IMG/VR virus record: IMGVR_UViG_3300020714_000006
Length of the DNA: 64,000 nt
Source of the DNA: a virus
Lineage: Duplodnaviria > Heunggongvirae > Uroviricota > Caudoviricetes
Direction: 5' to 3' (one strand)
Below, in pieces: positions 7,046 to 57,895 of this stretch. The first letter of the stretch is position 1; every line of letters starts with the position of its first letter. A program made the position numbers and the translations under genes. The notes beneath the pieces are model-generated. The model saw only the letters and a program-made list of their open reading frames with translations. It was not told the origin of the DNA and ran no database searches.

Positions 7046-7072
7046 ATAATTACAACAACACAAGGAATGTGT

Positions 7073-9217
7073 ATGGCAGTAAAACTAACAATATGCGATG
7101 AAGTAAATATTAAATTTTCTGGATTATCGCTTGATGCAAGAAAAAAATTAGCAGCAACTTTTAAATATGAAATACCATATGCAAAGTACCAACCAGCATA
7201 TCGATTAGGTCGTTGGGATGGTACAGTAAGTTTATTTGGTATAGGTGGCTCTGGATATTTAAGTCAGCTTGAATCTATTTTAGATATCTTATCTAAGATG
7301 GGTATTCAGTTAGATGAAGTAGATGACCAACGCAACCCAATTAATTTAACATTTGATGATGTCACCGAAACATATTGGGCAGATCAAGGTAAGGTATGGC
7401 CACCTGGGCATCCAACTGAAGGCGCCCCAATTATGTTGCGTGATTACCAGGTAGCTGCCATTAATAAGTTTTTAAAAAATCCGCAAAGTTTACAAGAAAT
7501 TGCAACAGGCGCTGGTAAATGTCAACCATTGAATAGTCTAGTATTAACGTCTACAGGCTGGAAAACTATGGGTGATATTAAAATAGGAGATTTGGTGGTT
7601 ACCCCAACTGGTAAATTATCTAAGGTAATAAGTGTATTTGAACCTGGTGTTAAAGATATATACCAATTAACATTTTCTGATGGAAGAACTGCTAAATCAT
7701 GTAAAGATCATTTATGGAGAGTTCATAATATTGATTGGAAAACTAATTCTGGACATTGGAGAAATATATCTACTGAAGAATTGATTAAATTAAAATCAAA
7801 TACAAAACGTTCTATTGGCATACCATTAGTTTCTATGAAAAATAATGATACAGACGTTGACTTACCTATGGATCCATGGTTATTAGGATTTTTACTAGGT
7901 GATGGAAGTTTTAGAAATGGTCGTATTAATTTTAGTACATCAGATTCTGAACTTGTTAACAAGGTTGAATCAAAATTAAATAATAGATATAAAGTAAAGC
8001 ATTTAGGAAAATATGATTACACCATCCAATTTGCAGATTTAAATGACATGAGAGCCAGTCATTCAGAATTGATGAAAATAAAAAGTAGAAATAAGAATGG
8101 TCATATAATAAATAATAACCATACTTCATTAAATGAATATAGACAAATTATTAATGAGTTAGGATTAGGTGAAACATACAGTCACAATAAATTTGTCCCA
8201 AAAATGTATTTTAATTCCAGCTTTAATCAGAGAATAGAATTAATTAAAGGATTAGTTGATAGTGACGGAACTGTTGACACCTCTAGTGTAAGTTTTACTT
8301 CAGTAAGTAAACAATTAGCGTTAGATTTTCAACAATTAATATGGAGTGTTGGTGGGATAGCAAAAATCGCCACTAAAGAAAAGAATACATATAAGTATAA
8401 TAACGATATAAAATTTGGTAAAACGTCATATCGTGTATCAACAAAATATACTACTCCTTGGGAATTGATATCATTACAACGAAAAATTGATAAAACAAAT
8501 TTGTTTTATCAGTATGGACCAACATTAAAGTTAAACATAGAGCATATTGAAAAAATTGGTTCAGAGGATGTCAAATGTATTCTTATAGATGACCCAGACC
8601 ATTTATATATTACTGACAATTACATTGTTACTCATAATACCATTACTACTGCTACGTTATCCCAAATATGTGAAAAATTTGGTAGGACAATAATCATTGT
8701 TCCAAATAAATCATTGGTTGAACAAACTGAAGAAGATTTTATTAACTGTGGATTAGATGTTGGTGTGTACTATGGTGATAGAAAAGATTTATATAAAACA
8801 CATACTATTTGTACATGGCAAAGTCTTAATATTTTAGATAAGAAAAGTAAAAATCACGAACACGATATTATATCATTGGCTGAGTTCTTAGATAATGTAA
8901 AAGCAGTTATAGTTGATGAATGTTTTGATGGTAATGCCAAGGTATTATCTGCAGATGGGTCATATGTCCCGATAAAAGATATAAAATCTGGAGATAAAAT
9001 CATTAATTATTCAGAAGAAACAAAAGCGTTTAAAGTTGATACAGTTATTAACCAACATAAAAATCTTAACAAATCTAATAATGAAAAAATGTATGAGTTA
9101 GAATTTGACAATGGTAGTATTATTAAAGTAACCGGAAATCACAAATTCTTAACGACTATTGGTTGGGTGCGTGCAGATGAGCTTACAGATATGCATTATA
9201 TTATTAATAAAACATAA
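7073..9217 (+). CDS. uvsW: UvsW-like SF2 helicase, N-terminal part, with a cis intein and the N-half of a split intein
   Basis: LRDYQ, ATGAGK|intein|T, IIVPNKSLVEQT, VIVDE|C. Confidence 0.9.
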   Translation: MAVKLTICDEVNIKFSGLSLDARKKLAATFKYEIPYAKYQPAYRLGRWDGTVSLFGIGGSGYLSQLESILDILSKMGIQLDEVDDQRNPINLTFDDVTETYWADQGKVWPPGHPTEGAPIMLRDYQVAAINKFLKNPQSLQEIATGAGKCQPLNSLVLTSTGWKTMGDIKIGDLVVTPTGKLSKVISVFEPGVKDIYQLTFSDGRTAKSCKDHLWRVHNIDWKTNSGHWRNISTEELIKLKSNTKRSIGIPLVSMKNNDTDVDLPMDPWLLGFLLGDGSFRNGRINFSTSDSELVNKVESKLNNRYKVKHLGKYDYTIQFADLNDMRASHSELMKIKSRNKNGHIINNNHTSLNEYRQIINELGLGETYSHNKFVPKMYFNSSFNQRIELIKGLVDSDGTVDTSSVSFTSVSKQLALDFQQLIWSVGGIAKIATKEKNTYKYNNDIKFGKTSYRVSTKYTTPWELISLQRKIDKTNLFYQYGPTLKLNIEHIEKIGSEDVKCILIDDPDHLYITDNYIVTHNTITTATLSQICEKFGRTIIIVPNKSLVEQTEEDFINCGLDVGVYYGDRKDLYKTHTICTWQSLNILDKKSKNHEHDIISLAEFLDNVKAVIVDECFDGNAKVLSADGSYVPIKDIKSGDKIINYSEETKAFKVDTVINQHKNLNKSNNEKMYELEFDNGSIIKVTGNHKFLTTIGWVRADELTDMHYIINKT
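7520..8638 (+). mobile_element. Intein (373 aa) with LAGLIDADG endonuclease, inserted in Walker A
   Basis: Starts CQPLNSLV; LLGFLLGDGS and IKGLVDSDG; ends IVTHN followed by Thr. Confidence 0.93.
8921..9217 (+). mobile_element. Split intein N-half (98 aa) in the UvsW DECH motif
   Basis: CFDGNAKV...IKVTGNHKFLT (block B TxxH), followed by a stop. Confidence 0.88.
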
Positions 9218-15941: not shown

Positions 15942-17219
15942 ATGAAACAAAATTACAACTACGATTTGAACATCCAAAAATTATATTTGGAAATGATGTT
16001 GGCAGATGCAGAAACATTTGTTAGATGTCAATCAATATTTGATCATGCACTATTTGATAGAAAATTGCAAGAACCAGCAGAATTTATCAATACATATGTG
16101 GAAACATTTAATGTATTACCAACCTATGAAATAGTAAATGCCGCTACCAACTCATCTTTTAAACAACCAGAAAATCTAAAAGAACAAAACTTTGATTGGC
16201 TATTAGTCGAATTTGAAACATTTACAAGACATAAAGGTCTAGAACGAGCTATCCTAGAATCTGCCGATATGCTAGAAAAAGGCGACTATGGCTCAGTAGA
16301 AGATAAAATTAAAAAAGCTGTACAAATCGGGTTGCAAAAAGATATGGGTACAGATTACTTTGCTAACCCACGTGCACGTCTATCTAAAATCAAAGATAAA
16401 AATGGACAACTATCTACTGGTTGGAAAGCAGTAGACGAAAAACTATTCGGAGGTATGAATAGAGGTGAACTTAATATCTTTGCTGGTGGGTCTGGTGCTG
16501 GTAAATCATTATTCCTAGCTAATCTAGGAGTTAACTGGGCATTACAAGGACTTAATGTAATCTACCTTACTCTAGAACTTTCTGAAGAACTAGTATCTAT
16601 GCGTATAGATTCTATGATGACCGGTATCCCAACCAGAGATGTATTCAAGAACATAGACGATGTAGAAATGAAAGTCAAAATGATTGGCAAAAAAGCTGGA
16701 TCATTACAAGTAAAATACATGGCTTCCGGTAAAACTTCTAATGATATACGTTCTTATCTTAAAGAATTTGAAGTAAAAACAGGTAGAAAAGTAGATGTTC
16801 TTCTAGTAGATTACCTGGATTTACTAATGCCAATCAGTAAAAAAATATCACCTGCTGACTTATTCATTAAAGACAAATACGTTTCAGAAGAACTTAGAAA
16901 TTTAGCAGTTGAAAAAAATTGTATCTTTGTTACCGCTTCACAGTTAAACAGATGTCTTTCTTTATCTACAATAGTGGAAGTTAATGGCATATTAACTCCC
17001 ATCAGTAATATAAAAGTAGGGGATTTTATAACGGCTAACACAGAATGTGTTCAAGTATTGGAGGTATTACCAATTGTAAAACAACCGGTGTTTGAAATTA
17101 CTACTAAATCTGGTAAAAAAATAAAATGTAGTGCAAAACACAAATTTCCAACTTTTACCGGATTACAAACACTTGAAACAGGGTTAAAGATAGGCGATAA
17201 ACTAATAATAAAAAAATAA
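15942..17219 (+). CDS. DnaB/gp41-like replicative helicase, N-terminal part plus split intein N-half
   Basis: GGSGAGKS, TLELSEE, VDYLDL, TASQLNR|CLSL. Confidence 0.9.
   Translation: MKQNYNYDLNIQKLYLEMMLADAETFVRCQSIFDHALFDRKLQEPAEFINTYVETFNVLPTYEIVNAATNSSFKQPENLKEQNFDWLLVEFETFTRHKGLERAILESADMLEKGDYGSVEDKIKKAVQIGLQKDMGTDYFANPRARLSKIKDKNGQLSTGWKAVDEKLFGGMNRGELNIFAGGSGAGKSLFLANLGVNWALQGLNVIYLTLELSEELVSMRIDSMMTGIPTRDVFKNIDDVEMKVKMIGKKAGSLQVKYMASGKTSNDIRSYLKEFEVKTGRKVDVLLVDYLDLLMPISKKISPADLFIKDKYVSEELRNLAVEKNCIFVTASQLNRCLSLSTIVEVNGILTPISNIKVGDFITANTECVQVLEVLPIVKQPVFEITTKSGKKIKCSAKHKFPTFTGLQTLETGLKIGDKLIIKK
16953..17219 (+). mobile_element. Split intein N-half (88 aa), gp41-8-like
   Basis: CLSLST..VLPIVKQPVFEI..KSGKKI..SAKHKFPT. 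Confidence 0.9.
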
Positions 17220-20668: not shown

Positions 20669-20872
20669 TTACGACCACTTTAATAAAAACCAATTCAGTT
20701 CACTCTCATTATTGAATTGGAATCTATTGTATCCATTTCTAGTGGTGTGCTTGAATGTATCAACACACCATTCATCCATATCGTTATACATACTACCAGA
20801 ATATGATACCGGTGTACTTTCTATATAATGACTATATACATACATATTTAATTCAGATCTTACAACTATCAT
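20669..20872 (-). CDS. Solitary WFxLRWS-family protein
   Basis: EWCVDTF...FQFNNESELNWFLLKWS. Confidence 0.75.
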   Translation of the reverse strand: MIVVRSELNMYVYSHYIESTPVSYSGSMYNDMDEWCVDTFKHTTRNGYNRFQFNNESELNWFLLKWS

Positions 20873-46939: not shown

Positions 46940-47053
46940 TATTATATCCTTATAAAATTTTGATATTATAACATAAAAGGATGGTTAGGTCAATAGTAGT
47001 TGACAAGGTTATGTGTATATGATAAGATATTGGTTCTTCATATTGAGGTGGTC

Positions 47054-47323
47054 ATGAAATTTAAGATATTTGATGTTGATTGGAAAAATGATAAAGTAGA
47101 TCATTCTTGTGGTGTACGTGTTTCTGGTGGTGGTGAGATAAAGCGGTATTATCCTGAAGTATATGAGTGGTTATGTAAGACTTTTGGTGATTATGGTAAT
47201 ATGAGTCGTGATAAATGGATAAAGTGTTGTGATCGTCGATATTATATAAATAGGAATCGTATTTTTTTCAAGGATAAATCTGATTTAACTTGGTTTATGT
47301 TGAATTGGTCATCTCTATTCTAA
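47054..47323 (+). CDS. WFxLRW-family protein behind an orphan junction repeat
   Basis: ATTGAGGTGGTCATGA at 47042-47057; ends LTWFMLNWSSLF. Confidence 0.75.
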   Translation: MKFKIFDVDWKNDKVDHSCGVRVSGGGEIKRYYPEVYEWLCKTFGDYGNMSRDKWIKCCDRRYYINRNRIFFKDKSDLTWFMLNWSSLF

Positions 47324-47356
47324 TTGAATAAATATAGGTAATGGAGAATTATATAG

Positions 47357-48427
47357 ATGTTTCTAAGAGAATTATTTGAAGCGAGAAGTTTACCAAATGA
47401 AAATAGTTTGGGTAGACCTATTACAAACAATCCACAATCATTAAAGAACTTTTGGGCATGGTTTAAAGGTAGTAAAGTCGTAGATGCTAATAAAAGACCA
47501 TTAGTAATGTATCATGGTACCACTGCTGATTTCCCCAGTTTTGGATATGAATATGCTGATAAAGGTGAAGGTGCTTCTGGTATGGGTTTTTACTTTACTA
47601 ATATGCATCATACCGCAAGTGGTTATGCAATGCAAAATAGAGAAAGTAGTGGTGCAAATGTTATACCGGTGTATTTAAATATTAGTAAACCCATGGATAG
47701 TGAATATAAAAAATTGCTTAATAGGATGCAAATTAAACAACTAATGTTGATGGCACCTGATTTAGATATGAGCTTAAGTAACTTTGGTGATGTAGAATAT
47801 GAGGGTAGAAATAAGGTATTAAATAATGCCATAGATGGGTACCATGAATATGGATATGATATTTTATTACGTCAATTAAATAGCATAGGTAATGATTTTT
47901 ATAGTGGTGAGAATGAAGCATTTTTAAAGGCTATTATAGCTATTACAGGGTTTAATGGGGTTGTTAAGAAATTAGGGGAAGAAGTATATTATGTAGCATG
48001 GGACTCTTCACAAATAAAGTCAGCGGTTGGTAATGTTGGTGGCTATGGTTCTGGTGGCATAGTTGATGAAACCTTGTTAGAAGAATTAAAAGATGGTGAA
48101 GATCGTATAGTGATACCTGGTGGTTTGATTAGAGTAGTATCACCTGCACCATATTCTCCTAGAGATGCTAGTGTAGTAGAATTTATCGTAGATGAAGATA
48201 AACGTAACCAAGGTATTGGTACAAAATTAGTAGCAATGGCTGTCAATAAGTATCCTGATCTAGGGGCACAAGTGAGTTCGGTATCATCTATGAAGGCATT
48301 TTATAATAATGGATTTCGTAATCCTAAAATACCAGATGGGTCTTTTGATGATCATATTGAAGCATTTAAAGAAAACTGGGGTAGTTTATTCATGGCCTCT
48401 ACTGATAGAGATGGTAAACGATATTAG
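47357..48427 (+). CDS. ADP-ribosyltransferase-like plus GNAT acetyltransferase fusion, MFLRELFE leader
   Basis: VMYHGT, GFYFT, VIPVYL, VAWDSSQIKS; then VDEDKRNQGIGTKLV. Confidence 0.75.
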   Translation: MFLRELFEARSLPNENSLGRPITNNPQSLKNFWAWFKGSKVVDANKRPLVMYHGTTADFPSFGYEYADKGEGASGMGFYFTNMHHTASGYAMQNRESSGANVIPVYLNISKPMDSEYKKLLNRMQIKQLMLMAPDLDMSLSNFGDVEYEGRNKVLNNAIDGYHEYGYDILLRQLNSIGNDFYSGENEAFLKAIIAITGFNGVVKKLGEEVYYVAWDSSQIKSAVGNVGGYGSGGIVDETLLEELKDGEDRIVIPGGLIRVVSPAPYSPRDASVVEFIVDEDKRNQGIGTKLVAMAVNKYPDLGAQVSSVSSMKAFYNNGFRNPKIPDGSFDDHIEAFKENWGSLFMASTDRDGKRY

Positions 48428-48454
48428 ATATAATAGAGAACATTATAGTTCTAA

Positions 48455-48485
48455 AAATAAACCGGGTATATCCCGGTTTTTTATT
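48455..48485 (+). terminator. Intrinsic terminator
   Basis: AAACCGGG-TATAT-CCCGGTTTTTT. Confidence 0.75.
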
Positions 48486-48512
48486 GACAAAATTTTAACA
48501 TTATGATAAGAT
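48484..48512 (+). promoter_or_regulatory. Sigma70 promoter heading the array
   Basis: TTGACA-17-TAAGAT, same -10 variant as at about 46990. Confidence 0.65.
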
Positions 48513-48537
48513 ATTGATTTTTTATGTGGTGGGTATT

Positions 48538-48777
48538 ATGCCAATAGGTAAAACTTATACGTTATCCAATATATTCAAAGGACGAGAATATCACGTAGTA
48601 ACATATATTGGTAAAGAGTATTGGATGCCAGATGACCAACATACCTGGTGTACTGAACAATTTGGTAAAGCTGGCGATTTTACTAATATAGTGGCGTGTA
48701 GATGGTATCATCATGGTAACCGTTTTGGGTTTTTAAATGAAGCAGACCGTGATTGGTTTGTATTGAGGTGGTCATGA
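48538..48777 (+). CDS. WFxLRWS-family protein
   Basis: Ends DWFVLRWS. Confidence 0.75.
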   Translation: MPIGKTYTLSNIFKGREYHVVTYIGKEYWMPDDQHTWCTEQFGKAGDFTNIVACRWYHHGNRFGFLNEADRDWFVLRWS

Positions 48778-48974
48778 TTTATGAAGTTAAATGGATTGAT
48801 ATGCCAGAAAATGTAAGAGAAAATATATTTAAAGCAATATTACTTGATGAAATAGGAATAATTTCAAAACTTAAACTTGAATTGATGAAATATAATGGAA
48901 TGTATAGTGATAAAGGTACTATTGTATTTGCATCCGATGCACATTACAATTGGTTCATATTGCGGTGGTCATGA
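48774..48974 (+). CDS. WFxLRWS-family protein
   Basis: ATGA-coupled; NWFILRWS. Confidence 0.75.
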   Translation: MIYEVKWIDMPENVRENIFKAILLDEIGIISKLKLELMKYNGMYSDKGTIVFASDAHYNWFILRWS

Positions 48975-49168
48975 GAATTACCATAGATAAGCCTACGAGC
49001 ACATCTAAGTGGCGATGGGTATTAGTATGTCCTGGAATTTCAGATGATGAAATAGATGAAATAAATGAATGGCTTGATAATAGTGGCATTGAATATAGCA
49101 ATGTTACGGTAAGGTGGTGGATATCGAGAGAAGCTGATGTTAATTGGTTTGTTTTGAGGTGGTCATGA
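48971..49168 (+). CDS. WFxLRWS-family protein
   Basis: ATGA-coupled; NWFVLRWS. Confidence 0.75.
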   Translation: MRITIDKPTSTSKWRWVLVCPGISDDEIDEINEWLDNSGIEYSNVTVRWWISREADVNWFVLRWS

Positions 49169-49356
49169 AAACATTTTATATGGAAGATTTTCCAAGAGTA
49201 GTAGAGGCTGCTTCCAGTCTTGGTTATGCTGAATTTTTAAGAAGAGATGGATTTAAAACTACAGAATATATTGGTAATAAGTTTGAAGTTAGTTATTGTC
49301 CATCACATTGTATGAGTGAAGAAGAATATACTTGGTTTGTTTTGAGGTGGTCATGA
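49165..49356 (+). CDS. WFxLRWS-family protein
   Basis: ATGA-coupled; TWFVLRWS. Confidence 0.75.
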   Translation: MKTFYMEDFPRVVEAASSLGYAEFLRRDGFKTTEYIGNKFEVSYCPSHCMSEEEYTWFVLRWS

Positions 49357-49595
49357 AAGAACGTGAAATCAAATTAGGGGGTAGGTGGCATAGTTGTCCA
49401 CGTTGTTGGCAGAATTTTATTATAGCATTGGATTTCCATGATGATGAATCTGACATTCAGAGAGATAGTAAAATACGAAAAGAGTTATTAAAGTTTAATG
49501 CTAAAAGAATTGGTGATTTTAGAAGTGATGACGGTACAACAATACTATTTAAAACCCCAGTAGATAAGACTTGGTTTATATTGAGGTGGTCATGA
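49353..49595 (+). CDS. WFxLRWS-family protein
   Basis: ATGA-coupled; TWFILRWS. Confidence 0.75.
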   Translation: MKEREIKLGGRWHSCPRCWQNFIIALDFHDDESDIQRDSKIRKELLKFNAKRIGDFRSDDGTTILFKTPVDKTWFILRWS

Positions 49596-49792
49596 TAGAG
49601 ATGATAGGAATAATAGCTAGTGATGATCAGTATTCATATAGAATTGGGTTTAGTGATAGACCTAAAATTCCATTAGAAGTAAGGCAATGGTGTCGAGAAA
49701 ATTTTAATGAAGAACGATGCTATGTTGGAACATGGACTATTTGGTTTAAGACCTCTGCTGAGTTAAATTGGTTTATATTGAGGTGGTCATGA
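49592..49792 (+). CDS. WFxLRWS-family protein
   Basis: ATGA-coupled; NWFILRWS. Confidence 0.75.
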   Translation: MIEMIGIIASDDQYSYRIGFSDRPKIPLEVRQWCRENFNEERCYVGTWTIWFKTSAELNWFILRWS

Positions 49793-50001
49793 ATATACTA
49801 GAAATACCATTCTATACAGAATTGGATAAGAAGTTAGAAGAAATGTGGCGTCAAACTGAAGGCACTCCAGATGAATGGATTGATTTTATAAAAGAATTAG
49901 ATAAAAATATAATAGGTGTAGAAGATAGAGCACAGAAAATTACTACTATAACATTTAGTAAACCAGAACATATAACTTGGTTCTTATTGAGGTGGTCATG
50001 A
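49789..50001 (+). CDS. WFxLRWS-family protein
   Basis: ATGA-coupled; TWFLLRWS. Confidence 0.75.
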   Translation: MNILEIPFYTELDKKLEEMWRQTEGTPDEWIDFIKELDKNIIGVEDRAQKITTITFSKPEHITWFLLRWS

Positions 50002-50249
50002 TTGACAAAATTATATTAAAATGTTCTGGGGCACACCGTGATCCACGCAAGGGTGTAGATTATTATATAGTTTCTAGGAGTAATCATTTTTATTGGATGT
50101 ATGATGAACAGCACACCTGGTGTGTAGAAACATTTGGTGAGCGAGGTGATTTTTCATCTAGTGATATATGTAGATGGTATCATAATGGTTCTGTTTTTTA
50201 TTTTTTAAATGAAGAAGATTGTAATTGGTTTATATTGAGGTGGTCATGA
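49998..50249 (+). CDS. WFxLRWS-family protein, paralog of 48538
   Basis: Shares YWM.D.QHTWC.E.FG..GDF..CRWYH.G. Confidence 0.75.
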   Translation: MIDKIILKCSGAHRDPRKGVDYYIVSRSNHFYWMYDEQHTWCVETFGERGDFSSSDICRWYHNGSVFYFLNEEDCNWFILRWS

Positions 50250-50458
50250 TTGTATCGTGGAGTGATTTACCGTTATCTGTGCAAATGCATTTAGATGATA
50301 TCTCTGGATATACTAACACTAGTATTTTAACAAAAGAATGGATTAGTAATTTAAATGTGTGTTTGGAACCATTCACGGCAACATTTGATTTTGATGATGA
50401 TATTATTTACTTTGACAGTGAAGAATGTTATACTTGGTTTATATTGAGGTGGGCATGA
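50246..50458 (+). CDS. WFxLRWS-family protein
   Basis: Ends TWFILRWA. Confidence 0.75.
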   Translation: MIVSWSDLPLSVQMHLDDISGYTNTSILTKEWISNLNVCLEPFTATFDFDDDIIYFDSEECYTWFILRWA

Positions 50459-50640
50459 AAAGAATAAAGTTTGATACATATGATTTCCCAAAATTCATTG
50501 ATGCAACGGATGATATTATTGGGTGGAATGAATCTTTTATTTCACAAGGGTATAAGACTTATCAAAATGATTATAATAGTTATCCCAGACACAGTTTGAG
50601 TGAAGAAGAATATACTTGGTTTTTATTGAGGTGGTTATGA
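50455..50640 (+). CDS. WFxLRWS-family protein
   Basis: Ends TWFLLRWL. Confidence 0.75.
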   Translation: MKRIKFDTYDFPKFIDATDDIIGWNESFISQGYKTYQNDYNSYPRHSLSEEEYTWFLLRWL

Positions 50641-50837
50641 TCAAAAGAATGAGCGGAAATTGGGTCAGGATTGGTGATAACGACGTTGAAGCAGGTAGAT
50701 GGTTAGAAGATAATATGGATGGAAAATTTGTCCCATATGAACGTTACAGTTGGTGGTATTCTATAGGCACACACTCACACGGTCATCCTATTGTTGTTTT
50801 ATTTCATGATGCTAAAGATATGACATTTTTTTATTGA
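50637..50837 (+). CDS. WFxLRW-family protein with tail lost by a T-run frameshift
   Basis: A run of 7 T gives FFY*; 8 T would give FFLLRWA*. Confidence 0.7.
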   Translation: MIKRMSGNWVRIGDNDVEAGRWLEDNMDGKFVPYERYSWWYSIGTHSHGHPIVVLFHDAKDMTFFY

Positions 50838-50844
50838 GGTGGGC

Positions 50845-51060
50845 ATGACATATAAAGTTAATGTTGATCATCACACCAATAAACCTGTTTGGAGAGCTTA
50901 TGCAAATTCATATGAAGCATTCAAGCACCCACTAGGTCATAAGGCTGGAAAATCATTTTGGGATGCATACATAGCAGAACATAATGTTGAACTAGTTGAT
51001 GGGCATCTTGTTTTTAAAAGTGAAGCACATTTTACTTGGTTTATGTTGAGGTGGTCGTGA
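50845..51060 (+). CDS. WFxLRWS-family protein
   Basis: Ends TWFMLRWS. Confidence 0.75.
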   Translation: MTYKVNVDHHTNKPVWRAYANSYEAFKHPLGHKAGKSFWDAYIAEHNVELVDGHLVFKSEAHFTWFMLRWS

Positions 51061-51254
51061 TTATTAAGGAAGGGTTAGATTATTCAATGAAGTTGTCACC
51101 AAATTTTATAGAATTGAGTTATATCATCGAATGGTGCGATGACAATTTTGGATTTAACAACTGGGATTGGGAGCAAAATGATTATGTTGGGTATTGTACA
51201 TTTTATTTTCAAACAGAAGAATATCGTAATTGGTTTATATTGAGGTGGTCATGA
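51057..51254 (+). CDS. WFxLRWS-family protein (GTG start)
   Basis: GTGA overlap; NWFILRWS. Confidence 0.72.
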   Translation: MIIKEGLDYSMKLSPNFIELSYIIEWCDDNFGFNNWDWEQNDYVGYCTFYFQTEEYRNWFILRWS

Positions 51255-51436
51255 AGTATGTTAAATTTCAGTTATGGGATTATCCCAAGTTTGCAAAATG
51301 GGGATGTTCTACCAATGATGCTATTACTTGGCCATCTGTTTTTAAGGTAGCAGGGTATAAAACTGCTACATTGGAGTCTGGGTATATAACAATGCGTGAA
51401 GATGAATATACTTGGTTTGTATTGAAATGGTCATGA
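51251..51436 (+). CDS. WFxLRWS-family protein
   Basis: Ends TWFVLKWS. Confidence 0.75.
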   Translation: MKYVKFQLWDYPKFAKWGCSTNDAITWPSVFKVAGYKTATLESGYITMREDEYTWFVLKWS

Positions 51437-51677
51437 AAAAAGTGGATACATTGAGGTATCAGATGGATTTTGTTATTATGCGTGGGTAAATACTGAAATT
51501 TTAGAAGAATCTACCAAATGGGCAACTGAACATTTTGGTAACCCATTACGTCAAGGTAATTATGGTGAACATTACTTGAAAATAGATACAGGTAATTTTC
51601 GATGGAAGTTATTGACGTGTACTTTCTTTTTTAAAACAGAAGCAGATAAAACTTGGTTTATGTTGAGGTGGGCATAA
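51433..51677 (+). pseudogene. WFxLRW-family gene frameshifted in an A6 run after ATG
   Basis: One extra A restores an 81-aa ORF MKKSGYIEV...TWFMLRWA. Confidence 0.75.
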
Positions 51678-51887
51678 ATGGTAAAATATATTGGACATAA
51701 CCCACGATGGTGGGTCAAGTATAAGGAAACTACTTATATTGAATATAAGAAATTAGTTCCAGACTGTGGGTTTGAGGAGTGGTTCAAGCGTGATTTAGCC
51801 AAGCAAGGTGTTCATATATTTACGTCCTATATGCTTGAATTTAAATCTGAATCGCATTTTACAATGTTCGTAATGAAATGGTCATGA
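51678..51887 (+). CDS. WFxLRWS-family protein
   Basis: Ends TMFVMKWS. Confidence 0.72.
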   Translation: MVKYIGHNPRWWVKYKETTYIEYKKLVPDCGFEEWFKRDLAKQGVHIFTSYMLEFKSESHFTMFVMKWS

Positions 51888-52120
51888 ATACATTAAGAAT
51901 CCCATACTATTCAGAATTGGATATTAAGTTAGAAGAATTATGGCAAGAAACACCTGGTCATTGGTGTGATTTTTTATATACTCTTGATGACCATATAACC
52001 AATGTCTATGTTGAAGAAATAAAATTGAATGATGGAAGAAGTATTAGTCCCGAATCAGCGACGTATATAGAATTTTTCAAAGAAGAACATGTAACTTGGT
52101 TCTTATTGAGGTTGGTATGA
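51884..52120 (+). CDS. WFxLRW-family protein, paralog of 49789
   Basis: IP.Y.ELD.KLEE.W; ends TWFLLRLV. Confidence 0.75.
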   Translation: MNTLRIPYYSELDIKLEELWQETPGHWCDFLYTLDDHITNVYVEEIKLNDGRSISPESATYIEFFKEEHVTWFLLRLV

Positions 52121-52329
52121 GTGAGATAGACATGACATATAGCGGGTTGGTATACCATACAAAATTATTGTCAATACCTTTTTTAAAACTGTTAGAAATT
52201 ATCGAATGGTGTGATAAACAATTTGGATTTCATAATTGGGAGTGGGTGAGTGATGATCAATATGGTTATTGTACATTTTATTTTAGCCACGAAGAACATA
52301 TAACTTGGTTTTTAATGAGGTGGTCATGA
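52117..52329 (+). CDS. WFxLRWS-family protein, paralog of 51057
   Basis: IIEWCD..FGF.NW.W..GYCTFYF. Confidence 0.75.
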   Translation: MSEIDMTYSGLVYHTKLLSIPFLKLLEIIEWCDKQFGFHNWEWVSDDQYGYCTFYFSHEEHITWFLMRWS

Positions 52330-52559
52330 GTTATGAAGTAATAATAGATTGGAGTTATGATAAAGAACGCATTAAATGGAGCACTTTTGACAACCATATT
52401 ATAAATCTTTGTGAGGTTTGTGATAATAACTATCTAAAATTATGGGCTAGTGAAATTGAAAAATATGGTGGTAGAGTAATAGAAGAAACTGATCGTATTA
52501 CAAGACTTTATTTTGAAAGTGAAGCACATTATACTTGGTTCTTATTGAGGTGGTCATGA
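52326..52559 (+). CDS. WFxLRWS-family protein
   Basis: Ends TWFLLRWS. Confidence 0.75.
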   Translation: MSYEVIIDWSYDKERIKWSTFDNHIINLCEVCDNNYLKLWASEIEKYGGRVIEETDRITRLYFESEAHYTWFLLRWS

Positions 52560-52900
52560 AGAAAATATTATCAATACTTAGAAAAGTAATCCCTACAACT
52601 ATCGCACAAGACATTATAAGTGTTCAACCAATGACTGCACCACTTGGCAGGATTTTTACTGTGTTAGATGGCCGTGTTGGATTTTCAAAGTTTGCATTGG
52701 CCAATAATCAAGATGAATGTTTAAAGTATCCAGGGGAACATTATGCAGTTGATATACGACCAGAAGTTGAGCAATGGTTAGTTGAACAAGGTAATTACAA
52801 TTGGAAATACGCAGAAGAAAATGATGATTTGCACTTTGCATTTACTCGTGTTATAATAACAGCAGAATTGTATACTTGGTTAATAATGAGGTGGTCATGA
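52556..52900 (+). CDS. WFxLRWS-family protein with an N-terminal major-capsid (gp23 Gol-like) segment
   Basis: LRKVIPTTIAQDIISVQPMTAPLGRIFT. Confidence 0.75.
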   Translation: MKKILSILRKVIPTTIAQDIISVQPMTAPLGRIFTVLDGRVGFSKFALANNQDECLKYPGEHYAVDIRPEVEQWLVEQGNYNWKYAEENDDLHFAFTRVIITAELYTWLIMRWS

Positions 52901-53364
52901 ACTCTATTTGCACAATAGATACGTTAGGTAATAAAGAATGGTTTTTAAATGGCCTTCGACATCGAGAGGATGGCCCTGCAATTGAAAATGTAAATGGCTC
53001 TAAACATTGGTATTTAAATGGCCTTCGACATCGGGCTGATGGACCTTCTTGTGAATGGCCAGATGGTGCTAAACATTGGTTTTTGAATGGCGTGAGACAT
53101 AGACTAGATGGCCCTGCTGTTGAATGGCCAGATGGTGCTAAAGATTGGTATTTACATGGCCGATTACACCGACTAGATGGCCCTGCTCGTGAAAGAGAAA
53201 ATGGTGATAAAGTTTGGTATTTAGATGGCAAATACCACAGACTAGATGGCCCTGCTGTTGAATGGACAAATGGTCATAAAGAATGGTGGTTAAATAACAA
53301 AAAATATACCGAAGAAGAATATATTATGATACAATTTATGAATAGGAAGAACATCTATGCCTGA
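52897..53364 (+). CDS. HRxDGPA (MORN-like) repeat protein, 5 repeats
   Basis: G.KxWYLNG..HRxDGPA units; cap YTEEEYIMIQFMN. Confidence 0.8.
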   Translation: MNSICTIDTLGNKEWFLNGLRHREDGPAIENVNGSKHWYLNGLRHRADGPSCEWPDGAKHWFLNGVRHRLDGPAVEWPDGAKDWYLHGRLHRLDGPARERENGDKVWYLDGKYHRLDGPAVEWTNGHKEWWLNNKKYTEEEYIMIQFMNRKNIYA

Positions 53365-53620
53365 ACCAATACTAACTGAACTTTCAAATGGTGATAAACA
53401 TTGGTATTTAAATGGAAAACATCATCGAGAAGATGGCCCTGCTGTTGAATTACCAGATGGATATAAATCATGGTATTTAAATGGCCAATTACATAGAACT
53501 GATGGCCCTGCTATTGAATTTCCAACTGGACATAAATCTTGGTATTTAAATGGCAAACATTATACAGAAGAAGAATATGCTCTAATACAATTTATGAATG
53601 GTGTGAATGTATATGCTTAA
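53357..53620 (+). CDS. HRxDGPA repeat protein, 2 repeats
   Basis: 8-nt overlap start MPEP. Confidence 0.8.
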   Translation: MPEPILTELSNGDKHWYLNGKHHREDGPAVELPDGYKSWYLNGQLHRTDGPAIEFPTGHKSWYLNGKHYTEEEYALIQFMNGVNVYA

Positions 53621-53984
53621 AGTATGGTCTAATGAATTTGGTCAATATCATCGTCTAGATGGCCCTGCAGTTATGGATGGTGATGGTAATGATTCATGGT
53701 ATTTAAATGACCAATTACATCGAGAAGATGGCCCTGCAGTTATGGATGGTGATGGTAATGATTCATGGTATTTAAATGACCAATTACATCGAGAAGATGG
53801 CCCTGCAGTATTGTATGCTAATGGTTCCAAATTTTGGTATCAGCATGGCCTACGACATCGAGAAGATGGCCCTGCTACTGAATGGGCTAATGGTCGTAAA
53901 AGATGGTTTTTAAATGACAAAGAATATACCGAAGAAGAATATGTTATGATACAATTTATGAATGGAAAGAATATCTATGCCTGA
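53613..53984 (+). CDS. HRxDGPA repeat protein, 4 repeats
   Basis: Internal 66-bp tandem duplication. Confidence 0.8.
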   Translation: MLKVWSNEFGQYHRLDGPAVMDGDGNDSWYLNDQLHREDGPAVMDGDGNDSWYLNDQLHREDGPAVLYANGSKFWYQHGLRHREDGPATEWANGRKRWFLNDKEYTEEEYVMIQFMNGKNIYA

Positions 53985-54240
53985 ACCAAAACTAATCGAA
54001 TATGCTAATGGTGATAAACATTGGTGGTTAAATAACCAATTACATCGAGAAGATGGACCAGCTATTGAATATACAGATGGTCATAAAGCATGGTATCTAA
54101 ATGACCTACGACATCGGCTAGATGGCCCAGCTATTGAAACTGCAGATGGACGTAAATATTGGTATTTAAATGGCAAAGAATATACTGAAGAAGAATATGT
54201 TATGATACAATTTATGAATGGAAAGAATATCTATGCCTGA
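53977..54240 (+). CDS. HRxDGPA repeat protein, 2 repeats
   Basis: MPEP start, conserved cap. Confidence 0.8.
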   Translation: MPEPKLIEYANGDKHWWLNNQLHREDGPAIEYTDGHKAWYLNDLRHRLDGPAIETADGRKYWYLNGKEYTEEEYVMIQFMNGKNIYA

Positions 54241-54565
54241 ACCAAAACTAACTGAATTTGCAAATGGTACTAAACATTGGTATTTAAATGACAAATTACA
54301 TCGAACTGATGGCCCAGCAGTTGAATGGGCTACTGGTCGTAAAGAATGGTATTTAAATGGAAAATTACATCGAGAAGATGGCCCTGCAGTATTGTATGCT
54401 AATGGTTCCAAATTTTGGTATCTGAATGACGAATTACATCGAGAAGATGGCCCTGCAATTGAACGGCTAAATGGTGATAAAGAATGGTATTTAAATGGCA
54501 AAGAATATACTGAAGAAGTATATGTTATGATACAATTTATGAATAGGAAGAACATCTATGTCTGA
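54233..54565 (+). CDS. HRxDGPA repeat protein, 3 repeats
   Basis: MPEP start, conserved cap. Confidence 0.8.
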   Translation: MPEPKLTEFANGTKHWYLNDKLHRTDGPAVEWATGRKEWYLNGKLHREDGPAVLYANGSKFWYLNDELHREDGPAIERLNGDKEWYLNGKEYTEEVYVMIQFMNRKNIYV

Positions 54566-54800
54566 ACCAAAACTAATACAGTGGTTGTTAAATGGAAAAT
54601 ACCACCGAGAAGATGGTCCAGCTATTGAATATCCAGATGGCAGTAAAACATGGTGGTTAAATGGCCGATTACACCGAGAAGATGGTCCTGCTGCTGAATG
54701 GGCAAATGGGTATAAAGAATGGTATTTAAATGACAAACAATATACCGAAGAAGAATATATTATGGTACAATTTATGAATGGGGTGAATATCTATGCCTGA
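54558..54800 (+). CDS. HRxDGPA repeat protein, 2 repeats
   Basis: MSEP start, conserved cap. Confidence 0.8.
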   Translation: MSEPKLIQWLLNGKYHREDGPAIEYPDGSKTWWLNGRLHREDGPAAEWANGYKEWYLNDKQYTEEEYIMVQFMNGVNIYA

Positions 54801-55056
54801 ACCAATATTAACTGAATATGCAAATGGTGATAAAAAATGGTCTTTGAATGGCAGATGGCATAGAGAAGATGGTCCAGCTATGGAATATTCAAATGGTACT
54901 AAACAGTGGTTGTTAAATGGAAAATACCACCGAGAAGATGGTCCAGCTATTGAATATCCAGATGGCAGTAAAACATGGTGGTTAAATAACGAACAATATA
55001 CTGAAGAAGTATATGTTATGATACAATTTATGAAAGGTGTGAATATCTATGTCTGA
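54793..55056 (+). CDS. HRxDGPA repeat protein, 2 repeats
   Basis: MPEP start, conserved cap. Confidence 0.8.
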   Translation: MPEPILTEYANGDKKWSLNGRWHREDGPAMEYSNGTKQWLLNGKYHREDGPAIEYPDGSKTWWLNNEQYTEEVYVMIQFMKGVNIYV

Positions 55057-55381
55057 ACTAATACTAACTGAATTTGCAAATGGTGAGAAATTTTGGTATT
55101 TAAATGACAAATTACATCGAACTGATGGCCCAGCAGTTGAATGGGCTACTGGTCGTAAAGAATGGTATTTAAATGGAAAATTACATCGAGAAGATGGTCC
55201 AGCATATGAAGGTATATATGGGCGTAAAGTATGGTATTTAAATGGCCTACGACATAGAACAGATGGCCCAGCTGTTGAATACCCAAATGGGTATAAAGAA
55301 TGGTTTTTAAATGACAAAGAATATACCGAAGAAGAATTTGCACTCATACAATTTATGAATGGTAAGAATATCTATGTCTGA
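55049..55381 (+). CDS. HRxDGPA repeat protein, 3 repeats
   Basis: MSEL start, conserved cap. Confidence 0.8.
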   Translation: MSELILTEFANGEKFWYLNDKLHRTDGPAVEWATGRKEWYLNGKLHREDGPAYEGIYGRKVWYLNGLRHRTDGPAVEYPNGYKEWFLNDKEYTEEEFALIQFMNGKNIYV

Positions 55382-55775
55382 ACCAACACTTATTGAATAT
55401 GCCACTGGTCATAAAGAATGGTTAGTGAATGGAAAATTACACAGACTAGATGGTCCAGCTTGTGAATTTGCAAATGGTGATAGATCGTGGTGGTTGAATG
55501 GCGAACTACATCGACTAGATGGCCCAGCTATTGTATATTCGGATGGTTCTAAAGCCTGGTATTTAAATGGTAATTTGCACAGAGAAGATGGCCCAGCATA
55601 TGAAAGGGATGATGGTCAAAAAGAATGGTGGTTGAATGGCAAATTACATCGAGAAGATGGCCCAGCATATGAAAGGGCTGGTGGTCATAAAGAATGGTAT
55701 TTAAATGGCAAAGAATATACTGAAGAAGAATACGCACTAATACAATTTATGAATGGGAGGAATATCTATGTTTGA
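55374..55775 (+). CDS. HRxDGPA repeat protein, 4 repeats
   Basis: MSEP start, conserved cap. Confidence 0.8.
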   Translation: MSEPTLIEYATGHKEWLVNGKLHRLDGPACEFANGDRSWWLNGELHRLDGPAIVYSDGSKAWYLNGNLHREDGPAYERDDGQKEWWLNGKLHREDGPAYERAGGHKEWYLNGKEYTEEEYALIQFMNGRNIYV

Positions 55776-56169
55776 ACCAGAATTATATGTATATTCAAAT
55801 GGTAATAAATTTTGGCGATTAAATGGCCGATTACATCGAGAAGATGGTCCGGCAGTTGAATATGCAAATGGTACTAAACAATGGTTTTTGAATGGAGAAT
55901 TACATAGCCTAGATTGCCCAGCTCGTGAATTTGAAGATGGTTATAAAGATTGGTGGGTAAATGGCAAACGACATCGAGAAAATGGCCCTGCTATTGAAAA
56001 TGCAGGTGGATATAAAGCATGGTATTTAAATGGCAAATTACACCGAGAAGATGGCCCTGCTAGTGAAGATGAAGTTGGTCATAAAGAATGGTATTTAAAT
56101 GGCAAACGGTACACCGAAGAAGAATATGTTATGATACAATTTATGAATGGGAAGAATATCTATGCCTGA
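55768..56169 (+). CDS. HRxDGPA repeat protein, 4 repeats
   Basis: MFEP start, conserved cap. Confidence 0.8.
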   Translation: MFEPELYVYSNGNKFWRLNGRLHREDGPAVEYANGTKQWFLNGELHSLDCPAREFEDGYKDWWVNGKRHRENGPAIENAGGYKAWYLNGKLHREDGPASEDEVGHKEWYLNGKRYTEEEYVMIQFMNGKNIYA

Positions 56170-56503
56170 ACCAATACTAACTGAATATGAAGATGTTTCT
56201 AAACGTTGGGTTTTAAACGGCATAATCCATAAAGCATCTGGCCAATCTATTGTATCAGAATTACCAGACGGAACTAAAATATGGTGGTTGGATGGCAAAC
56301 GACATAGAGAAGATGGACCCGCTATTGTATGGGCCAATGGTTCTAAATTTTGGTATTTAAATGACCTTTTAAATAGAGAAGATGGCCCAGCAGTTGAATG
56401 TGCTGATGGTTTTAAACAATGGTGGTTGAATGGCAAAGAATATACCGAAGAAGAATATGTTATGATCCAATTTATGAATGGTAAGAATGTATATGAAGTA
56501 TGA
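56162..56503 (+). CDS. HRxDGPA repeat protein, 3 repeats (one degenerate)
   Basis: MPEP start, conserved cap. Confidence 0.8.
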   Translation: MPEPILTEYEDVSKRWVLNGIIHKASGQSIVSELPDGTKIWWLDGKRHREDGPAIVWANGSKFWYLNDLLNREDGPAVECADGFKQWWLNGKEYTEEEYVMIQFMNGKNVYEV

Positions 56504-56795
56504 ACTTATAACAAGAACTCTTAATCCGTTAAGAAACATCTTTTGGTATTGGATACCAGGTACTACAGTATCATGGACATTATCAGGTGAACAGATGTAT
56601 TCACCATTACATTATATTGATTATGTATTCGAAGAAGAAGTAGGGGCATGGCTAACAAATAATGTAGGTAAACAAGGAAGATATTGGGATTGGCGATATA
56701 ACTCTACAGATGAAAATGACCATTATAAAATATCAGTTAAGATTATAAAATCTAGACAACACTGGTGTTCTATGTTATTATTGAGGTGGTCATGA
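56493..56795 (+). CDS. WFxLRWS-family protein
   Basis: Ends SMLLLRWS. Confidence 0.72.
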   Translation: MKYELITRTLNPLRNIFWYWIPGTTVSWTLSGEQMYSPLHYIDYVFEEEVGAWLTNNVGKQGRYWDWRYNSTDENDHYKISVKIIKSRQHWCSMLLLRWS

Positions 56796-56980
56796 AAGTT
56801 TCCATACCGGATGTTGGCACCGTTGCAAAAGAACAAGAAATTGTAAATTGGACTATCAAAAATTGTAAATCTTATATTAAAATGGAAGCTACTATATGTG
56901 CTGACCTGCATAAATGGAAACTTAATTTTTATTTTAATGATGCAGCAGATGCATCTTGGTTCTTATTGAGGTGGTCATGA
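56792..56980 (+). CDS. WFxLRWS-family protein
   Basis: Ends SWFLLRWS. Confidence 0.75.
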   Translation: MKVSIPDVGTVAKEQEIVNWTIKNCKSYIKMEATICADLHKWKLNFYFNDAADASWFLLRWS

Positions 56981-57216
56981 TTTATACTTCTAAAACGTGG
57001 CAACATGAAATCAAAATCCCATTTGATGATTATAAAAATATTGAAGAAATGGAACAATGGTGTAATGAGTATAGTTCAAAGTATAGATTTTCGTGTAGCT
57101 ACGGACATAGACAACTCAAACTTAAAAACAATAATTTTGTACCTGACTTCATACCTCATACATTTTGGTTTGAGCGTGAAGAAGATGCTAACTGGTTTGC
57201 ATTAAGGTGGGTATGA
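56977..57216 (+). CDS. WFxLRWS-family protein
   Basis: Ends NWFALRWV. Confidence 0.75.
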   Translation: MIYTSKTWQHEIKIPFDDYKNIEEMEQWCNEYSSKYRFSCSYGHRQLKLKNNNFVPDFIPHTFWFEREEDANWFALRWV

Positions 57217-57416
57217 AGCGTATAACATTTAATAAGATTAGATACCATGAACAGAGAGATATGATTGACTGGTGTGTTAAATCTTTTGGACCTGGTTCAG
57301 TTGGACACATTTGTCGTGATAATGAGGTATGGTGTTTTAATACAATGTTTGGTAATAGTAATTTTTGTTTTAAAGAAGACAAAGATTATAATTGGTTCGT
57401 ATTGAGGTGGTCATGA
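57213..57416 (+). CDS. WFxLRWS-family protein
   Basis: Ends NWFVLRWS. Confidence 0.75.
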   Translation: MKRITFNKIRYHEQRDMIDWCVKSFGPGSVGHICRDNEVWCFNTMFGNSNFCFKEDKDYNWFVLRWS

Positions 57417-57625
57417 AAGTTTTCAAATATTGGCGTGATTTACCTGAAGTTGTAGAGAAAAATATTGATATTGCAACAAACTTTCATGACGTAACCGGTA
57501 CAGAATGGGTTAATAATGTTCGTGAATTGTTAAAACCGTTTAATGCAACATATGATAACTATGATAATGGATTATGCTTTAAAAGTGAAGCACATTATCA
57601 ATGGTTTTTACTGAAGTGGTCATGA
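57413..57625 (+). CDS. WFxLRWS-family protein, paralog of 50246
   Basis: W.DLP..W...L.PF.AT.D; QWFLLKWS. Confidence 0.75.
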   Translation: MKVFKYWRDLPEVVEKNIDIATNFHDVTGTEWVNNVRELLKPFNATYDNYDNGLCFKSEAHYQWFLLKWS

Positions 57626-57864
57626 AATTAAATATCTGGGATAACGAAAAGAAACAGTATAAAAGTTTTTGGACAAACTTTTGTAGAGATCTTGAAAACA
57701 GAATTACAAATGATAAATTTGATGAAGTCGATTACATCTCTTATTATTTTAGGAAACTAGAAGAAGAAATTAGACCGTACAATGGTATTTTTCTCAAAGG
57801 TCAGCATCATGTTGAATTTGAACGTGAAGAAGATCTTACTTGGTTTTTAATAAGATGGTCTTGA
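57622..57864 (+). CDS. WFxLRWS-family protein
   Basis: Ends TWFLIRWS; its TGA lies in the TTGACA -35 box. Confidence 0.75.
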   Translation: MKLNIWDNEKKQYKSFWTNFCRDLENRITNDKFDEVDYISYYFRKLEEEIRPYNGIFLKGQHHVEFEREEDLTWFLIRWS

Positions 57865-57889
57865 CATAGATATGTAATTGTAGTATAAT
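57861..57889 (+). promoter_or_regulatory. Consensus sigma70 promoter
   Basis: TTGACA-17-TATAAT. Confidence 0.85.
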
Positions 57890-57895
57890 ATAACA

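Follow-up and report, generated by a model that had tools for sequence, protein, structure and literature searches.

[quoted passage not shown] The arrangement would represent ordinary translational coupling, and the same patch of DNA would also serve as a boundary between gene cassettes. At the junction pointed out in an earlier note, TTG AGG TGG TCA TGA can indeed be read as peptide tail, SD and start at once (48754-48777; Table 1). Five bases separate the GAGG core from the ATG (48774-48776), which is composed of the A of TCA and the TG of the TGA stop (48775-48777). The mechanism is a known one, in which an intragenic SD and an ATGA overlap serve termination-reinitiation or independent initiation at a strong SD; the scale and the stereotypy are out of the ordinary, as is the way in which the signal is tied to a conserved protein motif.

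Genomic context of the junctions

The window, which is the whole stretch of 64,000 nucleotides that was analysed, has a GC content of 33% and is part of an uncultured freshwater phage genome of ~334 kb ("giant"). Its DNA is contained in freshwater metagenomes of 17 studies and was found in no RNA run, and its intein-bearing helicase shares 40% identity with the helicase of a 348-kb coliphage. The window contains a helicase gene with LAGLIDADG and Hint/intein domains (7067-9217) and a DnaB-like helicase with an intein splicing fragment (15942-17219).

Family copies were located by a six-frame scan of the whole window with the tail pattern (W/M)(F/L)-x-(L/M/I)-(R/K/N)-(W/L)-x. Approximately 37-38 small genes end in WF-x-L-(R/K)-W-S, and 33 of them have a start codon next to the tail. 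The plus strand carries 36 intact family genes of 60-115 aa between 47054 and 61903. The apparent transcription unit headed by the flagged gene pair contains 20 family genes, followed by an array with DGPA/WYLNG repeats (52897-56503) and six further family genes, and no strong terminator was found inside this unit. The position of the family genes behind host-type promoters suggests that they are early accessory genes.

Table 1. Positions of the junctions, tail variants and associated features.
Feature	Position	Strand	Details
Flagged junction	48754-48777	+	TGG TTT GTA TTG AGG TGG TCA TGA = W F V L R W S stop
Upstream gene of the flagged junction	48538-48777	+	79 aa; the last seven codons and stop form the junction
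SD GAGGTGG	48765-48771	+	last base of Leu TTG, Arg AGG and Trp TGG
ATGA overlap	48774-48777	+	start of gene 48774-48974 over the TGA stop of 48538-48777
Sigma-70-like promoter at array head	48484-48512	+	TTGACA, 17 nt, TAAGAT, with TG extension
Terminator-like hairpin	48459-48479		directly upstream of promoter 48484-48512
Apparent single transcription unit	48538-57864	+	nearly all genes joined by overlaps
Leader copy of the junction	47031-47057	+	TGGTTC...TTGAGGTGGTCATGA, directly after promoter 47000-47028
Orphan junction DNA	50834-50848	+	TTGAGGTGGGCATGA / GAGGTGGGCATGA intact; LRWA peptide no longer encoded
Isolated family gene	20669-20872	-	tail (20669-20692) TTA AAG TGG TCG TAA; uncoupled, without overlapping start
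Frameshifted family copy	51433-51677	+	frame broken in A6 run
Family copy without tail frame	50637-50837	+	one-base loss upstream
Variant GGGCATGA	50450
Variant GGTTATGA	50632
Variant GGTCGTGA	51052
Variant GGTCATAATG	59091 and 60725
Trp-less variant	52111-52120		AGG TTG GTA TGA (R-L-V)
Arg replaced by Asn	47308		AAT
Array-terminal, uncoupled tail	57841-57889	+	TGG TTT TTA ATA AGA TGG TCT TGA; no SD, no ATG; listed as uncoupled at 57864 (ATA AGA TGG TCT)
Tail W F A L R W S H L L stop	58822-58854	+	TTA CGA TGG AGT...; peptide kept, SD absent; listed as uncoupled at 58854
Variant TTA AGA TGG TCA TGA	60029-60052, also 60474-60497	+	SD lost
TTG AGG TGG TCA TAA TG junction	60710-60735	+	feeds 38-aa hydrophobic ORF 60733-60849
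Tail of last family gene	61880-61903	+	CTT AGG TGG TTA TAA; next gene 195 nt off
Uncoupled tail in locus L001	13797		TTG AGA TGG AGT

The 33 coupled junctions of the window comprise 26 ATGA, one GTGA, two TAATG and one TAAATG, together with three other overlaps. All the spelling variants named in the earlier note are present (Table 1), and its statement that Trp stays fails at the R-L-V variant. The -35 box of a perfect TTGACA-17-TATAAT promoter (57861-57889) includes the stop of the array-terminal tail 57841-57889; this promoter faces a gene-free stretch (57865-58372). After tail 58822-58854, the next start is an ATG (58836) formed by CGA (58834) and TGG; similarly, AGA and TGG create a second in-frame ATG in the variant TTA AGA TGG TCA TGA.

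Between the first family gene and the main array lies 47357-48427, whose 356-aa product has a polyvalent-protein-type ADP-ribosyltransferase domain (PF18760, E 4e-21) and also matches GNAT acetyltransferases weakly. The second tandem array (52897-56503) consists of 11 genes of 80-157 aa with ...GxKxWYLNGxxHRxDGPA... repeats, for which the DUF6745 and MORN_2 Pfam matches are weak and below threshold. Its junctions encode ...FMNGKNIY(A/V) and a stop, with the next ATG inside TATGCCTGA, an 8-nt overlap and a weak GGnAAG site. Two hydrophobic ORFs of 38 and 39 aa (60733-60849 and 60846-60965), probably membrane peptides, are ATGA-linked between the family array and a 5'-nucleotidase-like gene (60962-61489; Pfam NT5C below threshold), and a perfect consensus promoter (TTGACA, 17 nt, TATAAT; 60739-60767) is located inside the 38-aa ORF.

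Codon choice at the tails

Among the 33 coupled tails of the window, the Arg/Lys codon is AGG in 27, AGA in two, AAA in two, CGG in one and AAG in one. The five uncoupled tails carry AGG, AGA, CGA, AAG and AAT once each (AGG in 27/33 vs 1/5; Fisher p = 0.012), and the single AGG among them is that of tail 61880-61903. AGG makes up 7.7% of Arg, TTG 12% of Leu and TCA 31% of Ser codons in 30 long window ORFs; the corresponding values in the family gene bodies are 9.8%, 15% and 24%. The predominance of AGG despite the AT-richness, which the earlier note had reported, is therefore seen against a background of 8-10%, and the codon-level comparison over all junctions that it had called for reveals an Arg codon use that departs from the genome average (27 of 30 Arg codons AGG against 0.098, binomial p ~2e-24, in which independence is overstated because the genes are paralogs). 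The listed replacements of this codon (AGA, AAG, AAA and CGG) were all seen, and the list has to be extended by CGA (58834) and Asn AAT (47308).

The adjacent Phe codon (TTT in 26 tails, TTC in 10) follows the genome average, which indicates that synonymous sites beside the Arg codon are not frozen. Aliphatic and Thr/Asn codons near the tail vary as well, and the per-base information profile displays a near-invariant block, TTGAGGTGG..ATGA, with low-information third positions on either side. The bodies of the window paralogs share just 22-42% protein identity. This low identity, together with the neutral neighbour codons, argues that recent duplication does not account for the spelling.

The wider sample contains 408 unique family tails from 119 phage loci and was gathered by peptide pattern. 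More than 115 stretches of IMG/VR contigs contain the 24-nt pattern exactly, and a related 38-gene array was found through protein look-up. In the ATGA overlap design (n=258), the Arg/Lys codon is AGG in 247 tails and the preceding codon ends in G in 253 (TTG, CTG, Met ATG or Val GTG), while the last codon specifies S, L, A, T, E, V, Q, K, G, I or R and is always NNA. AGG is used in all 24 tails of the TAATG design, and the GTGA design (n=12) equals the ATGA design in SD strength. A further 38 tails build the ATG from the last base of AGA, AAA or CGA and the TG of the Trp codon, with an 8-nt overlap; AGG is never used, and Lys is encoded in 23. This design, in which L-(K/R)-W-x-stop is written ..A TGG NNN TAA and the ATG spans the Lys/Arg and Trp codons, was observed in 32 loci (e.g. 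L004, L024 and L075) and also in the window (60029-60052).

AGG, the preceding G and the final NNA are fixed only where a start codon lies 4-9 nt past the Arg codon, which bears out the earlier proposal that selection acts on the RNA or DNA. The association between AGG and an ATG at +4 to +9 is found in a test that leaves out 171 tails selected by DNA pattern (127/41 vs 25/44, p = 1.8e-8) and in a sample gathered by the NWF[IL]LRW peptide with fully degenerate codons (16/4 vs 2/9, p = 0.0017), both p-values being descriptive because paralogs and related phages are non-independent samples. The direction of this dependence is identical in every subset. About half of the tails without a start at +4 to +9 carry AGG anyway, part of which is misclassification, for example where the downstream ORF is shorter than 45 codons as at 60733. 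Six tails have a stop that overlaps or directly adjoins a TTGACA-N17-TATAAT/TATACT promoter, and none of them uses AGG; this arrangement of tail codons and TTGACA at array ends also appears in loci L001, L030, L076 and L128. The share of Lys is 3.5% with ATGA, ~60% in the design with the ATG inside the R-W codons and ~27% in uncoupled tails. As far as can be read from these distributions, it is the RNA signal that sets the codons and, largely, the preference of Arg over Lys.

Shine-Dalgarno signal and translational coupling

GAGGTGGTC pairs over nine positions, including one G-U, with a generic 16S tail. Pairing energies were computed with this generic 3' tail, which may not match that of the host; on this basis, the predicted mean is -13.5 kcal/mol for 23 window junctions and -13.1 kcal/mol for 258 junctions, with about -13 kcal/mol for the ATGA, TAATG and GTGA designs alike. 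The threshold for a 'strong' SD is -8.4 (Huber et al., 2019, PMC6728339). AGGA/GGAG sites of -2 to -7 kcal/mol precede most other window genes. The design of the 38 tails without an SD has a mean of -2.9 kcal/mol, and its existence indicates that a strong SD is not indispensable. The predicted unpaired probability is 0.35 for the SD-to-ATG stretch vs 0.46 for the flanks, and no clear sequestering structure at this stretch emerged from the pairing prediction, so that accessibility does not separate coupled from independent initiation.

The window junctions display the co-directional stop/start overlap of coupled gene pairs and, with the generic anti-SD, an SD in the 3' coding region of the upstream gene at 4-11 nt from the start. 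We infer that the GAGGTGG motif probably acts as an SD in the host and that downstream translation may be coupled rather than independently initiated; the SD is so strong that independent initiation is equally possible. A prfB-type +1 frameshift and a fusion of cassettes by frameshifting were both considered and rejected: there is no slippery CUU U, the pre-stop codon UCA (or GCA/UUA) cannot re-pair in the +1 frame, and a separate ATG in the -1 frame serves the next gene.

The signal is also retained separately from the peptide. No upstream gene ends in the junction sequence at the leader copy 47031-47057; here gene 47054-47323 apparently makes use of it as a simple ribosome-binding site. Gene 50637-50837 stops at the TGA inside TTGAGG after the one-base loss upstream, leaving the orphan junction DNA behind. 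Orphans of this kind, i.e. the 15-mer without a family tail, represent only 6 of 339 canonical 15-mers. The element therefore belongs with the tail family, rather than serving these phages as a general ribosome site.

The frameshifted copy 51433-51677 shows a -1 frame change directly after its start (ATG AAAAAA G), and one extra A restores the frame. The same A6 run is present in contigs of two other samples (2012, 2023), which indicates either a real pseudogene or a low-level slippage site. The junction upstream of this copy has the Lys codon AAA and no SD, and is one of two such junctions in the window.

The tail peptide and its protein family

A profile of 37 window proteins matches at least 655 cluster representatives (E <= 0.001, among 1.84 billion), nearly always at the extreme C-terminus. 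In 156 representatives found by the profile, the successive tail positions are W (128) or M (19), F (153), an aliphatic residue, L (138) or M (16), R (146) or K (9), W (154), and S (111), A (18) or G (11), with exactly one residue after the Trp in 124. In AlphaFold2 models of two subfamilies (pLDDT 88 and 80), the tail lies within the last helix, which itself has a pLDDT of about 90 in both and is preceded by a beta hairpin with F-x-F. The F..E...WF pattern, taken by the earlier note as a real shared helix, thus corresponds to a predicted C-terminal helix in two subfamilies.

Tails without a start encode L-(R/K)-W by AGA, CGA, CGT, AAA or AAG, and Ser is retained as AGT, TCT, TCG or AGC where an ATG is not needed (for examples, see the uncoupled tails in Table 1). 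Retention of L-(R/K)-W without SD codons argues that the peptide is selected in its own right, and with the tail forming a predicted helix end, the suggestion that it is partly a by-product does not hold.

The family of 60-115-aa phage proteins is undescribed. Searches of Pfam-A and PHROGs with eight members gave no family-domain match, the sole match being a Gp23 fragment in 52556-52900; Foldseek against the PDB gave no match at E <= 0.001; and the wide VIA-align search reached a best Z of 4.7, to generic ferredoxin-like or RRM-like folds that offer no clue to function. The Atlas feature search returned unnamed viral clusters only, and 50,697 records of cultured phages yielded no match to 47000-53000 by megablast or to two family members by tblastn. 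In bacterial and archaeal genomes, 40 stretches fit the peptide pattern and none was confirmed with a 28-aa query, which is too short to conclude absence. The literature search found nothing relevant on the tail motif. As for the Gp23 fragment, the N-terminus of family gene 52556-52900 (52556-52663) matches a conserved stretch of the N-arm of T4-type major capsid proteins (residues 3-36; Pfam Gp23, E 6e-8; PHROG 138), and Gp23 is found on 13% of the members of an Atlas cluster of similar length.

The patch as a cassette boundary

Synteny is lost at the patch. In 105 cassette pairs with bodies that are 70-97% identical, the mismatch is <=0.15 through the stop and rises to ~0.6, as between unrelated sequences, as soon as ATGA is passed; similarity upstream of the start is lost likewise in 40 cassette pairs. 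Single cassettes in three other contigs share 94% identity with cassette 50411-50634, while their flanking cassettes share the repeat only. These losses of similarity indicate that duplication and exchange occur in units bounded by the patch, and recombination probably takes place within it. Contigs from other freshwater samples end at junctions 48756, 50460, 50828, 52557, 60260 and 60476, which is weak evidence because the short sides (21-47 nt) may stem from other phages with the same repeat. A point against the dual-coding reading is that, in recently diverged cassette pairs, the third bases of TTG, AGG and TCA are just slightly less variable (0.13-0.19) than other third positions (0.2-0.3). 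The 15-24-nt patch contains neither a sigma-70 promoter nor a stem-loop terminator; promoters are found only at array heads and ends. We regard the boundary role as a consequence and possibly a second selected role, rather than the cause of the spelling.

Alternative explanations

Recombination or gene conversion might be the main reason why the patch is kept, in which case it would serve as a homology site and its likeness to a ribosome site would be secondary. Such a role would fit the abrupt end of cassette similarity at the patch on both sides, the 94%-identical single cassette common to phages with unrelated neighbours and, weakly, the contigs breaking at junctions. We nevertheless consider it unlikely, since any sequence would do for homology, whereas the patch complements the 16S tail almost perfectly and lies at the correct distance from the ATG. 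Although Leu, Met and Val all occur before Arg, the codon at that position ends in G in 253/258 tails, and the variants GGGCATGA, GGTTATGA, GTGA and TAATG lower the homology while preserving SD and start; moreover, the element is also used as a leader ribosome site behind a promoter. Both roles are compatible, and the alternative only concerns which of them drives conservation. A related idea is that the patch is selected as a 'universal adaptor', in which a shared end of 15-40 nt, containing the codons of the helix end, the ribosome site and the next start, lets phages duplicate, delete and exchange single small genes by homologous recombination. This we regard as tentative and, on balance, rather doubtful. 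If true, reading frames and expression signals would stay unbroken across exchanges, the system would be a recombinase-free analogue of integron cassettes, and the C-terminal motif of the family would be held partly by the adaptor role.

A tail without any protein role, present only as the translated RNA signal (the earlier note's idea in its strong form), would account for the loose constraint on the last residue in ATGA junctions, where the codon is always NNA, for the way Arg over Lys tracks the signal and for the one gene that has lost its tail and retains the junction DNA. It is largely refuted, and we judge it very improbable: uncoupled and array-terminal genes encode L-(R/K)-W with non-SD codons and keep Ser as AGT, TCT, TCG or AGC without the need for an ATG, the tail falls within a helix predicted with high confidence in two subfamilies, and L, R and W are near-invariant in the 156 profile-found representatives. 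The least probable account, to which we give hardly any credence, dispenses with selection on nucleotides and attributes the spelling to recent duplicates or to rare AGG and TTG codons that slow the ribosome before termination. The copies are paralogs and both codons are rare here, but the codon tables already contradict it. Gene bodies as divergent as 22-42% protein identity, freely varying adjacent Phe, Thr/Asn and aliphatic codons, and a 15-mer found in >115 viral contig stretches, some with conserved genes of just 65-73% DNA identity to those of the window, do not fit recent copying; rarity, in turn, predicts neither the G-ending Met/Val codons nor the dependence on a downstream ATG.

Proposed function and significance

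In the dual-coding model that we favour, the junction codons would complete a C-terminal amphipathic helix (E...WF-x-L-R/K-W-S), the family signature, at the protein level. At the RNA level, synonymous and near-synonymous freedom would be spent on writing GAGGTGG, with the ATG five bases past the GAGG core and overlapping the TGA. Ribosomes that end one cistron, or newly bind, could then start the next, which would allow early operons of >=20 small genes to be translated without spacers. Each cassette would bring the ribosome site and start for its follower, so that cassettes would also be duplicated and exchanged at the same 15-40-nt patch.

No new translation mechanism is revealed. The hundreds of junctions provide a natural dataset that separates peptide selection from RNA selection, with array-terminal genes, a promoter-proximal leader, a broken-frame copy and an alternative overlap design as internal controls. 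They show that the need for a ribosome-binding site can lock rare codons in place and favour Arg over Lys within a conserved protein motif. They also explain how dozens of tiny early genes can be expressed and reshuffled by giant phages with no spacers between them. To annotators, the junction supplies a reliable start-codon rule for a large unannotated phage gene family.

Comparison with known systems

Early regions of T4-like and jumbo phages that are termed 'hyperplastic' contain small, fast-evolving genes with host-type promoters and often ATGA overlaps. The arrays studied here resemble them in their long runs of small early genes behind host-type promoters, and differ in that a single family, whose members share a C-terminal helix, accounts for most of the genes.

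Coupling by termination-reinitiation has been described at ATGA and TGATG overlaps with an SD in the upstream 3' end (Huber et al., 2019, PMC6728339), and spacing and stop codons are adapted at overlaps (Palleja et al., 2009, PMC2784483). The junctions share with such pairs the co-directional genes, the 4-nt ATGA overlap and an upstream codon and stop usage that is bent to the signal. In contrast to the described pairs, a single 15-mer is repeated over dozens of consecutive junctions and is locked to the C-terminal motif of one family in >100 phage contigs.

PeSLs are mobile regulatory cassettes of T4-type phages (Arbiol et al., 2010, PMC2839356; Comeau et al., 2014, PMC4122927). The patch, which is not known to form mini-circles, resembles them as a short regulatory repeat between small non-essential early genes, at boundaries of gene gain, loss and replacement; here, too, the repeat forms the edge of gene replacement in related phages. 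Whereas PeSLs are intergenic promoter-plus-terminator units, the patch is coding, comprises a ribosome site and a start codon, and leaves two reading frames intact across the joint.
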